Shown: in pieces, positions 6,465 to 24,318 of the stretch
How the letters are laid out: each line of letters opens with the position of its first letter
How positions within the stretch are numbered: the first letter of the stretch is position 1
IMG/VR virus record: IMGVR_UViG_2740892258_000019
DNA from: a virus
Lineage: Duplodnaviria > Heunggongvirae > Uroviricota > Caudoviricetes
DNA length: 24,318 nt
Reading direction: 5' to 3' (one strand)
The notes under the pieces: model-generated
The model's input: only the letters and a program-made list of their open reading frames with translations
The model's database searches: none
What the model was told of the DNA's origin: nothing
Made by a program: the position numbers and the translations under genes

Positions 6465-6923
6465 TCAGCGACGGGCCGCTGATTCAAGATGGCGGACAAT
6501 GGTATCGAGGATGGGGATTACCACTTCAGGCTGTAGTTCTCCATCCCCCGTCACCGGCAGGAACGGGCGGGCCGGAAGTTCAACAGACTCATTACGCCCC
6601 GTTTTACCCCCGAACTGGTGAATGGTACCGTAAACAACGTTGGTCCCCACAACAGCCTGCCGGTCGTCATGGTCGGTTGATACTGACCCCATCAGACGCC
6701 CGGTATCCTGCAGTGTCTGCCCGTCACGTTCTTCCGCTGCCAGCGAGGGCATCCACCCCGGACGCCCCTCATCAAGAAAGTTAAACTGTGTTTCCGCCAG
6801 CAGGGTTCCGGCGATTTTGCGCATCGCGGGCTCCAGGTCTGTGGCAGCCAGATCCAGCGCACGGAGGCTCCGGCGCAGGGATTTATCGTTAATGGTGATA
6901 CTGACCAGGTTATCGGAAGCCAT
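6465..6923 (-). CDS. virion morphogenesis protein (Mu gpG family)
   Basis: 152 aa; motif VVGTNVVYGTIHQFGG characteristic of Mu G-like proteins; coupled to F. Confidence 0.75.
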   Translation of the reverse strand: MASDNLVSITINDKSLRRSLRALDLAATDLEPAMRKIAGTLLAETQFNFLDEGRPGWMPSLAAEERDGQTLQDTGRLMGSVSTDHDDRQAVVGTNVVYGTIHQFGGKTGRNESVELPARPFLPVTGDGELQPEVVIPILDTIVRHLESAARR

Positions 6924-22586: not shown

Positions 22587-23036
22587 ATGCAGAAAAAACG
22601 CCTGATACAGCTTATCCATATTGCCCGTAATGAACTGGGTATGGATGAAGACACCTACCGCCAGATGTTACAGGGGCTGACCGGTAAAGCCTCAACCAAA
22701 GGAATGGATACCACACAACTAAACTGCGTGCTGGAATCCATGAAAAAGAAAGGCTTTCGCGTTAAACCAGCCAGAAAAGCCAGCTCCGGTTTACCGCTGG
22801 ATAACCATCCGCAGTCCAGGAAAATTCGTGCGCTATGGCTTGAAATGGCTGCTGCCGGCATTGTTCGTGACCGTTCAGAAAATGCATTAGCGCGGTGGAT
22901 CAAGCGGGAAACGGGCATCAGCGCCCTGCGCTGGCTCAATACTGAACAGGCAAGCAGTGTTATTGAGAAACTGAAGAAGTGGCAGCACAGAGCTGCGGGA
23001 GTAAAACATGAGCGACCTGAATCAGTTTCGAAGTAA
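22587..23036 (+). CDS. gemA: GemA-like protein (Mu gp16 family, DUF1018-type)
   Basis: 149 aa; N-terminal LIQLIHIARNELGMDEDTYRQML pattern and position immediately upstream of mor. Confidence 0.6.
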   Translation: MQKKRLIQLIHIARNELGMDEDTYRQMLQGLTGKASTKGMDTTQLNCVLESMKKKGFRVKPARKASSGLPLDNHPQSRKIRALWLEMAAAGIVRDRSENALARWIKRETGISALRWLNTEQASSVIEKLKKWQHRAAGVKHERPESVSK

Positions 23037-23406
23037 AGGGCCGGAACTCCTGGTGGAGCTGGCACAGCATACCTCTGAGACCGTTCGCGAGATTATTGAT
23101 ATTGAGCCCGCAATTGCCGACCAGATTGGTCAGGCCGTCGCGAACCGAATGATGCAGGTCTGGGGCGGGCAAAACGTTTATTTCCCGATGGGCATGGTAT
23201 GGAAGGTCAGTCAGCGCGACCGGGAAATCTTCAGGGAGTTTAACGGACGCAACCACCACGAACTGGCCCGCAAGTTTGGTGTTTCGCTTCAGTGGGTCTA
23301 CAGCGTGGTTAAGCGGGTCAGAAAAGAAGAACTGGATCGGATGCAGGGCAGGTTGTTTGATGAAGATCTGCCAGAGGAGACGAAAGACGTTAACAAATCC
23401 AGATAA
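23008..23406 (+). CDS. mor: Mor/C-family transcriptional activator (middle-operon activator)
   Basis: 132 aa; GGQNVYFP and REFNGRNHHELARKFGVSLQWVY motifs match the Mor/C family HTH region. Confidence 0.75.
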   Translation: MSDLNQFRSKGPELLVELAQHTSETVREIIDIEPAIADQIGQAVANRMMQVWGGQNVYFPMGMVWKVSQRDREIFREFNGRNHHELARKFGVSLQWVYSVVKRVRKEELDRMQGRLFDEDLPEETKDVNKSR

Positions 23407-23450
23407 TTCCTGCTTGTTAAAGTCCTTTCAAAAATCTCCTTATTGTATAA

Positions 23451-23483
23451 AAGCACGGTAGACCCCTTACCGTGCTTTTTTTA
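23451..23483 (+). terminator. rho-independent terminator downstream of mor
   Basis: aagcacggta-gacccct-taccgtgctt followed by a T-run, read directly. Confidence 0.8.
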
Positions 23484-23520
23484 TGCTCTCTCTTTAGTAT
23501 TCAGGATGCAGGGAGAAAAT

Positions 23521-24153
23521 ATGTTTGACGTTTCGTTGTTAAATCTGCCATGGGCAACACTGGTGACCCTGACCAGTGGCTATATTGGGTATTTTATTGC
23601 GAATGTGGGACTGAAGGATCACCACAAGCCCATTGAGGTGACTTTTTCTTCGCTGATTTTTGGCCTGACAGCAATGATGGCTTACCAGGCTGTTATGTGG
23701 GCAGGTCTGAATGCCTGGCTGGCAACACCACCAGCACTTCTGTGTGCCGTTACATGCGGTGCGTGGTGGCGCAGGTACGGTCGCAAATGGATGTACAGAT
23801 TACTGTGGAATAATGATGTTTCATGGTCTGACGATACCAGCTCAGCATGGCAGGCAATGTTTGATCAAACAGGCTTCAGCGTTACCGAGGTCAGAGTGAT
23901 TCTTCGCGATGGTTCCGGTATGATGTCACGGCTGCCAGGGAACTTTGAAGAGTGGCCTAACGGTCCGTTTACCCTGGGGAATAAAGGCGATATGGTTCTT
24001 TACGTCACGCACAGCAGCCCTTCAGGCAGTAACGAATGGGAAGAGTATAAAGGCGTGGTTGATAAGTACTGGGGAGCTCTGGCAACCTATATTCCAGCAG
24101 ATCAGATTGCCAGAGTGGAGATCAGGCGCGTTCGTGCAACGAACGATGAATGA
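23521..24153 (+). CDS. membrane protein (three N-terminal TM helices + ~110-aa soluble C-domain), function unknown
   Basis: Start chosen at ATG after GGGAG; first gene after the mor terminator; no motif recognised. Confidence 0.55.
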   Translation: MFDVSLLNLPWATLVTLTSGYIGYFIANVGLKDHHKPIEVTFSSLIFGLTAMMAYQAVMWAGLNAWLATPPALLCAVTCGAWWRRYGRKWMYRLLWNNDVSWSDDTSSAWQAMFDQTGFSVTEVRVILRDGSGMMSRLPGNFEEWPNGPFTLGNKGDMVLYVTHSSPSGSNEWEEYKGVVDKYWGALATYIPADQIARVEIRRVRATNDE

Positions 24154-24159
24154 TGTTTA

Positions 24160-24318
24160 TTTTTTCCCTGGGGCAGGGGCTGCCGGCATAGTGGTTTTAT
24201 TGGCAGAGGAAGACGATTCTCCTTTTCTACCGGAATCGCGCTCGAACGTCACGATGTGCTTGCTTTTGGGCTTTTCTGAGTAATCCAGGCTATCATGCTT
24301 ATTGTTTTGAGTAGTCAT
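24160..24318 (-). CDS. small basic ORF convergent with upstream gene, abutting window edge (possibly partial)
   Basis: 53-codon ORF (MTTQNNKHDSLDYSEKPKSKHIVTFERDSGRKGESSSSANKTTMPAAPAPGKK) whose ATG is the last 3 bases of the window; below track cut-off. Confidence 0.25.

Follow-up and report, generated by a model that had tools for sequence, protein, structure and literature searches.

A DUF6338-like membrane protein gene and a proline-tailed small-protein gene form a mobile pair at the end of BcepMu-type prophages of Escherichia coli

Introduction

The viral record IMGVR_UViG_2740892258_000019 (Caudoviricetes), a stretch of 24,318 nucleotides referred to here as the window, ends with two convergent genes that follow the late-activator gene mor. 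The larger encodes a probable inner-membrane protein of 210 amino acids, best described from its sequence as a divergent relative, on a sister branch, of the DUF6338 family (PF19865), and the smaller encodes a hydrophilic, proline-tailed protein of 53 amino acids. We report here that the two genes form an optional cassette, or moron, at the very end of a BcepMu-type transposable prophage of Escherichia coli, that they travel as a mobile pair found in unrelated phage backbones, and that, more generally, DUF6338-type membrane proteins seem to have proline-tailed mini-proteins as partners. We hold with high confidence that both open reading frames (ORFs) are protein-coding and that the anatomy of the locus, its optional and mobile nature and the conserved pairing are established. 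A function is put forward tentatively: at a probability of about 0.4, we consider the cassette to be a conflict module that acts at the membrane to the benefit of the lysogen, in exclusion or abortive infection, and that is restrained by its small partner. The conserved pairing and its link to Pseudomonas stutzeri, described below, appear to be new; morons and the DUF family are, as kinds, already known. Literature searches on the accessions and PHROG identifiers returned no match.

Optional cargo at the end of the prophage

A gemA-mor probe found matches in 640 of 5426 complete E. coli genomes. The 210-residue gene is present in about 119 of the 640, and the small ORF together with the phage end in about 118; counts for the cassette as a whole are 115-119. 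In about 520 nothing lies between mor and the phage end. In the cargo-free prophages L004-L006 mor is the last gene, with host DNA starting about 180-270 bp later. When the cargo-bearing allele was aligned with the related phage PhiKM and three E. coli prophages that lack the cargo, similarity ended at about position 23366, within the last ~13 codons of mor, and returned only in the terminal ~70-150 bp of the phage. The cargo segment stands in for about 100 bp between mor and the terminal repeats of the empty relatives, and the alleles differ by a clean replacement between codon ~120 of mor and those repeats. The cassette is absent from otherwise near-identical relatives, which makes it optional cargo in the sense in which the term moron is used.

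An earlier note on this DNA, made from the sequence alone, had proposed an accessory, moron-like locus starting past the terminator that follows mor, and the counts given above bear this out; homology to a conserved Mu core function was looked for and none was found. Base composition gives no ground for a foreign origin of the segment, as its GC content (0.50-0.53, compared with 0.52-0.58 in the neighbouring DNA) does not set it apart from its surroundings.

The gene pair in other phages and hosts

The unit recurs in phage backbones that are not related to one another. Proteins with 57-76% identity to the large protein follow Mor at the prophage ends of Klebsiella, Citrobacter, Serratia, Proteus, Salmonella, Symbiopectobacterium and Arsenophonus, the first six being enterobacterial genera in which the pair occupies Mu-like ends, and homologues with 37-47% identity are found in prophage-like regions of Bradyrhizobium, Afipia, Devosia and Rhizobiaceae, the alphaproteobacterial copies adjoining serine recombinase, Dam or morphogenesis genes. 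Within the latter identity group, an HK97-like prophage (L071) carries the pair between its connector and head-closure genes. The most distant of these cases is a homologue with 29% identity at the end of the record of Synechococcus phage Ssp-JY41. Members of the family also occur in seemingly non-phage chromosomal spots (L069, L080).

Nearly all of these loci have a minus-strand ORF, 36-60 codons long, whose end falls between -20 and +8 nt from the stop codon of the large gene. A strict automatic rule, which asked for a convergent ORF of at least 35 amino acids with PxxP or PP in its last 14 residues and no hydrophobic stretch, picked out a partner at 19 of 31 distinct loci, compared with 1.3% of 9300 random positions in the same DNA; by eye, a partner ORF is seen at about 27 of the 31. 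The two genes travel together.

That one or both ORFs are non-functional chance or decaying frames at a prophage end is a reading that we regard as refuted in all likelihood. It is true that prophage ends collect debris, that no function is known for the pair, and that the endosymbiont copies (L017, L018 and L026) are degraded or without a partner. Against this, a profile search of 1.84 billion cluster representatives places the large protein in a family of 521 clusters with conserved columns, and the small ORF is under selection, is syntenic in Gamma- and Alphaproteobacteria and a cyanophage, and has analogues that have been detected by proteomics.

These analogues are found in P. stutzeri ATCC 14405, where three novel proteins of 36, 47 and 41 amino acids are encoded directly 3' of the 194-residue DUF6338 gene Pstu14405_RS12030 (PMC10433244). 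They are abundant and were detected by digest-free mass spectrometry, with 44-114 peptide-spectrum matches and 98-100% coverage, as full-length proteins in the soluble cell fraction, and their C-termini read ...APPPPKK, ...PPPPPKRDSK and ...PPPPPKKGG (PMC10433244). The authors deemed them unique to P. stutzeri, raised the question of antimicrobial roles and noted the presence of DUF6338 in biosynthetic gene clusters (PMC10433244). As in the window, a DUF6338 gene lies beside hydrophilic, basic, proline-rich small proteins with tails of the PPPPKK type; unlike the window, which has a single convergent small gene, the P. stutzeri locus has three on the same strand, and its context is not described as a prophage. 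The P. stutzeri DUF6338 protein is likened to the window protein by family name. The pairing seems to be general, since the P. stutzeri tails are of the same type as those of the partners found here: in both settings a small (about 36-60 amino acids), hydrophilic, proline-tailed ORF adjoins a DUF6338-like gene. Since the P. stutzeri genes are co-directional, a link at the protein level is favoured over a purely antisense one.

The number of partner copies varies, with one in the window, two in L080 and three in P. stutzeri. In L080 (6628-6951) the two small ORFs are tandem and convergent, and both end in ...PPPKPSR beside one DUF6338-like gene. Two other loci depart from the simple arrangement. 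The large protein of L069 (7614-7837), from an Allosphingosinicella metagenome-assembled genome, has a 30-residue Ala/Pro/Ser-rich C-terminal extension that is antisense to one of two proline-rich small ORFs (...PPPPAPAPAPAPPPPTKR and ...PPPPAPSRK), and either strand may be the one translated there. In L073 (6690-6977), from Serratia marcescens, an additional ORF of 95 amino acids lies between Mor and the DUF6338-like gene, and the terminal slot can therefore hold more than the two-gene unit.

The small proline-tailed protein

The small protein matches PHROG 15726, a family annotated as of 'unknown function', over residues 1-53 of the 53-position profile (E = 1e-41). Where synonymous divergence could be estimated, the ratio of non-synonymous to synonymous substitution rates (dN/dS) is 0.10-0.25; the other pairs are saturated at synonymous sites and have non-synonymous values of 0.13-0.47. 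A Shine-Dalgarno sequence of the AAGGAT type is conserved, which for this copy lies beyond the window. Judged by these substitution patterns, the small ORF is a true protein gene under purifying selection. The earlier note had described a small convergent, basic ORF running to the window edge. It is indeed present and convergent, and it is complete, not cut by the window; the description as basic fits this copy (isoelectric point 9.7) and does not carry over to its relatives, whose net charge ranges from -9 to +9.

The protein is strongly hydrophilic, with a grand average of hydropathy of -1.40 and a maximum hydropathy of -0.26, and, like its relatives, it is rich in Ser, Pro, Lys, Thr and Asn and has no hydrophobic segment. 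AlphaFold2 assigned it no secondary structure (predicted template modelling score 0.16), and it is predicted to be disordered. Two short motifs recur. The first is aromatic and reads DYSE-x-PK in this copy; enterobacterial proteins have it in the form [DE][YF][ST]E[ND]xK, and those of alphaproteobacteria carry N[YFH]xxPxT once or in up to three repeats. The second is a PxxP tail at the C-terminus, with Lys or Arg next in most cases: PAAPAPGKK here and PPAPLGKK, PPPSPKKK (Bradyrhizobium, Afipia), VPPPPKK (L071) or GPPPPKK (L079) elsewhere. A sequence search with the 53-residue protein returned only copies of at least 79% identity, so the wider conservation is visible by synteny only, and a profile search with 111 diverse relatives gained few new long contigs.

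We considered several known classes for this protein. An analogy with spanins (Rz/Rz1) was rejected, as lipobox and signal sequence are both lacking and the locus lies outside the lysis cassette. Ribosome stalling at polyproline was rejected as a common feature, as the tail of this copy contains no PP. A type I toxin-antitoxin system, which pairs a small hydrophobic toxin peptide with a non-coding antisense RNA, was likewise rejected: the small ORF is hydrophilic and conserved as a protein, and an Rfam scan matched no RNA family, though the convergent transcripts may still overlap.

It is also conceivable that the small peptides are themselves the active products, resembling antimicrobial peptides, precursors of ribosomally synthesized and post-translationally modified peptides or secreted signals, with the DUF6338 protein serving as exporter, processing factor or immunity protein. 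The variable copy number, the repeated N-[YFH]-x-x-P-x-T motifs, the Pro/Lys-rich tails and the suggestions made by the authors of the P. stutzeri study are all in keeping with this. The small proteins, however, lack any signal peptide, leader or cleavage motif, and none of the loci has an adjacent modifying enzyme or ATP-binding cassette exporter; the P. stutzeri proteins were full-length in the soluble cell fraction, and a three-helix protein of 210 residues would be an unusual exporter. We consider this explanation improbable.

The large membrane protein

The large protein matches PHROG 12870, a family annotated as of 'unknown function', with the query spanning the entire 210-position profile (E = 8e-134). 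No Pfam family is matched by the window protein at E <= 1, and it falls below the Pfam gathering threshold for DUF6338. Of its 34 close homologues, 19 match PF19865 weakly (best E = 8.5e-6; the precomputed hits are marked 'faint'), and one homologue, P0052, is named 'DUF6338 family protein' in the source databases. The protein resembles other members of DUF6338 and PHROG 12870 in its size of about 200 residues and its single-domain build, and nearly all clusters of the family are 196-260 residues long with a single domain and no informative fusions. As both families are of unknown function, membership explains nothing of the mechanism.

The AlphaFold2 model (mean predicted local distance difference test score 84.5) has helices at residues 11-28, 37-60 and 65-97 and a beta domain at residues 119-205. 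The earlier note had given the protein a length of 211 residues; the ORF is present, and its true length is 210. The three N-terminal transmembrane helices and soluble domain that the note had read from the sequence agree with the model. The three hydrophobic segments are free of charges, yet only moderately hydrophobic, with mean Kyte-Doolittle values of just 1.0-1.3, and three transmembrane helices are thus well predicted rather than measured. These probable helices lie at about residues 11-31, 40-60 and 62-83. A juxtamembrane helix (84-97), amphipathic and rich in Trp, Arg and Lys, comes next, and after it a soluble domain of about 110 residues, modelled as an LSm/Sm-like beta barrel at about 105-205. 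Because five Lys/Arg residues follow helix 3 and a KDHHK loop follows helix 1, the positive-inside rule predicts an outward-facing N-terminus and a cytoplasmic beta domain. The barrel would then face the same compartment as the small partner, which has no signal sequence.

Among close relatives the best-conserved stretch is N-terminal and consists of LPW, helix 1 and KDHHK; across the wider family the conserved columns are only G20, Y21, Y24, G30, W83, G153, Y161, G185, T189, P192 and R202. A catalytic arrangement of S101, D104, D157 and H164 was considered and dropped, since conservation of these positions does not extend to the family at large.

A profile search against PDB sequences returned noise only (E >= 0.59). 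The barrel resembles LSm/Sm-fold domains, among which are the peptide-binding LSm domains of LSM14 and EDC3, at 9-17% sequence identity; the LSM14 LSm domain bound to a partner peptide is one of the Foldseek matches, whose E-values are not significant. Unlike these domains, the barrel here is membrane-tethered, and nothing in the large protein points to ring formation or RNA binding. MscS channels have superficially the same order of parts, namely three helices, a Gly-containing helix 3 that runs into an amphipathic stretch, and a beta barrel with a D-G turn; a relationship based on three transmembrane helices and an Sm-like domain was rejected by hhalign, with no sequence or profile homology to the MS_channel core (third transmembrane helix plus beta domain). 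In Foldseek the three-helix part also resembles LydA and class III holins, weakly and without significance (E = 0.02-0.8). The large protein is not identified as a holin: the phage has its holin and SLT lysin elsewhere, and the protein carries its soluble domain in addition to the helices.

Prophage type, termini and insertion site

E. coli M-17 and several other strains carry a prophage with 100% identity to the window. In M-17 the prophage is about 38.9 kb long, extending from just past rstA to a truncated rstB, and in the RefSeq annotation rstB and tus, both genes of the host, come next after the small ORF. Its minus-strand genes encode tail, head, terminase, SLT lysin and holin, followed by dam, the gene of a nucleoid-associated protein and the repressor. 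The plus-strand order is ner-like, rve transposase, AAA+ B-like, Gam, GemA, Mor, the 210-residue gene and the phage end. The early operon is thus divergent from the repressor, with the late genes beyond the repressor on the opposite strand (RefSeq, L001 and L002).

The ends of the prophage were located from its junctions with the host. At the left junction host sequence ending in ...CTGCTGGT passes directly into TGATGCGCCGCGCGATAAATG..., and at the right junction ...CATTTATCTCATGTCTGATCA passes into host GCTGGTCGGG. Repeated GAGATAAAT-type sites are present in both ends of the prophage, of which the left reads TGAT...GATAAATG and the right ...CATTTATCTCATGTCTGATCA; GATAAAT-type repeats occupy positions 14-21 and 36-43 of each. 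A target duplication of 5-6 bp is present, GCTGGT in rstB being duplicated at the junctions. The right terminus corresponds to window-equivalent position 24514, which is 196 bp past the window end. TG...CA termini are typical for BcepMu relatives (PMC2628397). The related phage PhiKM is classified as Bcepmuvirus, and both the termini and the operon layout make the element a BcepMu-type transposable prophage. Insertion sites vary among strains (irp1, yfaV, xylR, a fimbrial usher gene and others), as transposition is expected to bring about.

The earlier note had compared the locus to the semi-essential interval between mor and C of Mu, and had suggested that C could be located by extending the window. 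Homology to Mu is real, in that mor and gemA are true Mu homologues, and Mu, too, has accessory genes gathered towards the distal end of its early operon. The arrangement here, in contrast, is that of BcepMu: the early operon ends at the terminus, and no C, lys or late genes lie downstream. The next genes are those of the host, the terminal inverted repeats and target duplication fix the phage end shortly beyond the window, and the lysis and late genes are located upstream on the other strand. A Mu-style region with C and lysis genes downstream is refuted by these observations, and we give it next to no credence.

Several observations on the prophage and its relatives are recorded here in their own right. 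The M-17 prophage sits about 20 codons into the sensor-kinase gene rstB (L002 ~6790-6800; L001 14010-14021), and as RefSeq gives this rstB as 5'-truncated with a new start, this probiotic strain has probably lost RstB signalling. Three sites in the M-17 genome (NZ_CP068394.1) are matched by the gemA-mor probe, which indicates several related transposable prophages, of which one was examined. The final ~145 bp of the right end (L001 13862-14006; window-equivalent 24361-24505) are about 90% identical to unannotated plasmid DNA. Such right-end-like DNA is found on about 105 E. coli plasmids, which are large (166-296 kb) and many of which come from poultry isolates; on plasmid p3R-1 (L081 3001-3144) it adjoins IS1 and IS3 remnants. 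These copies look like the fossil end of a related transposable phage. The window and several other IMG/VR contigs (L029, L031, L032, L034) end precisely at the start codon of the small ORF. In the PhiKM record (L003 4094-5351, PQ738613) a Mor-family gene is labelled 'protein C', and a gene for an 'Fe2+ ABC transporter permease' and a tail-fibre gene fall beyond the phage terminus (AATCA); these extra genes look as if they came from host flank that was packaged or from an assembly that joined the two ends.

Locus anatomy and transcription signals

The features of the locus are listed in Table 1. The gene mor is the last core gene of the early/middle operon, and we treat it as context rather than cargo.

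Table 1. Features at the right end of the window, in window coordinates.
Feature	Position	Strand	Basis and remarks
gemA	22587-23036		gene call beyond doubt
mor, Mor-family late activator	23008-23406	+	Pfam PF08765, E 1.1e-43
Cargo-specific allele segment	23366-24318, continuing to about 24360 (window-equivalent)		alignment with cargo-free prophages
Intrinsic terminator hairpin	23449-23479		terminator scan; 13-bp stem, A-run 5', T-run 3'
Candidate weak promoter, large gene	23460-23488	+	TAGACC-17-TATGCT, 8/12 consensus, below scan threshold
Large gene, 210 aa	23521-24153	+	ORF call; PHROG 12870
Small gene, 53 aa, complete	24157-24318	-	ORF call; RefSeq coding sequence WP_001571575; PHROG 15726

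The strong terminator that the earlier note had placed after mor is confirmed by the scan. Its RNA fold has a predicted energy of -19.1 kcal/mol (z = -6.98), and none of 200 shuffled sequences was equally stable. As a run of A precedes the stem and a run of T follows it, the hairpin is probably bidirectional. The large gene has a Shine-Dalgarno sequence, GGGAGA, 5 nt ahead of its ATG at 23521, with an alternative in-frame ATG at 23506. The ATG of the small gene forms the final three bases of the window, and the stop codons of the two genes are 3 nt apart.

A sigma-70-like promoter for the small gene (TTGAAA-18-TAGAAT, 10/12 consensus) was found at window-equivalent positions 24362-24391. It precedes the ATG by 44-73 nt and belongs to the conserved phage end, past the edge of the window. 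The candidate promoter of the large gene has its -35 element TAGACC in the hairpin loop and its -10 element TATGCT just past the T-run, 33 nt before the ATG. A T-run with TATTCT or TATGCT is located 28-36 nt upstream of the large-gene ATG in six enterobacterial loci, and the hairpin stems vary in sequence with pairing kept in Klebsiella, Citrobacter, Serratia, Salmonella and Symbiopectobacterium (L007, L013, L014, L016, L019, L045, L047). A terminator and a weak promoter may be fused in one element, which we offer as a lead rather than as evidence.

The terminator scan found nothing between the large and small genes, so their convergent transcripts should overlap, up to the hairpin after mor. 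This overlap is among the features that would fit a toxin-antitoxin or addiction system, in which a membrane-depolarizing toxin is countered by a labile antidote, either the small protein or an antisense transcript, and the pair stabilizes its carrier element instead of fending off phages. Further features of this kind are the convergent layout, with stops separated by 0-8 nt, or with an overlap of up to 20 nt, at nearly all loci, the small size and predicted disorder of the partner, which make it probably labile, and the toxin-antitoxin genes (Rosmer-like, and BrnTA by eye) near some copies. On the other hand, transposable prophages do not excise and so have little need for addiction. The three co-directional small genes of P. 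stutzeri are unlike an antisense mechanism, the small ORF is conserved as a protein, and no similarity to a known toxin-antitoxin family was found. On balance such a system seems decidedly unlikely.

Possible function

The reading to which we assign the probability of about 0.4 can be set out as follows. The linear motifs of the small protein would bind to the LSm-like barrel, much as peptides are bound by some LSm domains, and the bound partner would hold the membrane protein in an inactive or tuned state. Within the lysogen, the pair would serve in superinfection exclusion or abortive infection, to the benefit of prophage and host, and the membrane protein would come into action once the two products are out of balance. 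What we infer here is that the two proteins interact physically, how the large one is oriented in the membrane, that the lysogen expresses the genes and that they have a role in defence. We favour this reading because the cassette behaves as a moron, the barrel and its partner are predicted to share the cytoplasm, there is precedent for peptide binding by LSm domains, and some neighbouring genes are suggestive. The last of these comprise Abi_alpha two genes from a family member (L020 7358-8236), a gene of the Eco57I/MmeI restriction-modification type and a pair read by eye as BrnT/BrnA near another (L068 1013-4775), and a Rosmer-like RmrA/DUF4411 pair one gene from a third (L069 8756-10371).

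Inner-membrane morons of prophages that act in exclusion or abortive infection include RexB of lambda, with RexA, gp15 of HK97, SieA of P22 and Imm of T4. The likeness to these lies in a possible way of working: a temperate phage carries one or more optional genes, set off by a terminator, for a small inner-membrane protein of several helices, which in some cases has a partner in the cytoplasm. No relation in sequence or fold was detected.

A number of results weigh against this proposal. The defence neighbours are anecdotes from three or four loci and do not amount to a statistical enrichment, and the other neighbours tested in L077 and L069 had no PADLOC match. The earlier note had thought of exclusion or host interaction, which is still a guess, and had suggested structure and profile searches as a route to a function; these gave no functional assignment, with no family in PADLOC-DB 2.0 at E <= 1 and no informative match in NCBIfam or Pfam for either protein. 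The tail motif is loose in this copy (PAAPAPGKK) and acidic in some relatives (...APPSRD, ...PFPSEE). A detectable small ORF is absent at four loci (L017, L018, L052 and L057), two of them endosymbiont copies and two virus contigs. Finally, the promoter scan found none for the large gene, and in the absence of a convincing sigma-70 promoter this gene may be expressed by lytic read-through only.

The last point leads to the view that the cassette is an accessory of the lytic cycle, in which the large gene is read through past the mor terminator or is Mor-dependent and the small protein is its regulator. Its role might then be in membrane remodelling, in holin/antiholin-like timing of lysis or in control of DNA entry or exit. 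Apart from the want of a consensus promoter of its own, the large gene is co-oriented with mor here and with late structural genes in L071, and the LydA and holin resemblance noted above would also fit. Set against these are the roughly 80% of the closest E. coli relatives that have no cassette and still look complete, the holin and SLT lysis cassette that the phage has elsewhere, the strong terminator between mor and the large gene, and the family members in seemingly non-phage chromosomal spots. We judge a lytic role to be unlikely.

Taken further, the proposal of a partner-restrained membrane module would describe a widespread and so far unrecognized two-component system, borne as cargo by prophages of many types, in which the barrel reads the motifs of the partner and the partner's release or loss, through infection or translation stress for example, activates the membrane effector. 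This wider version we regard as doubtful.

Implications

Some consequences concern the map of these phages. The early operon of E. coli 'Mu-like' prophages ends at the terminus, and the site after mor is a terminal cargo slot rather than an internal region. Boundary calls that stop at the last gene lose 196 bp which hold the promoter of the small gene and the transposase-binding repeats.

The meaning of the pair itself depends on its activity. Should it be without a phenotype, it would be an ordinary moron of unknown function. If it is functional, a DUF family of about 500 clusters would gain an obligate partner that is usually missed by gene callers and that was found here by synteny across three bacterial phyla/classes, and the orphan proteomics observation in P. 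stutzeri would be explained and made general. The pair would also be a compact and readily cloned candidate (about 1 kb) for a new system of exclusion or abortive infection borne by prophages in clinically common E. coli lineages, including those of the ST131 type. If the two-component reading were true, these proteins would represent a new family of phage defence or exclusion with a eukaryote-like logic of motif and domain.

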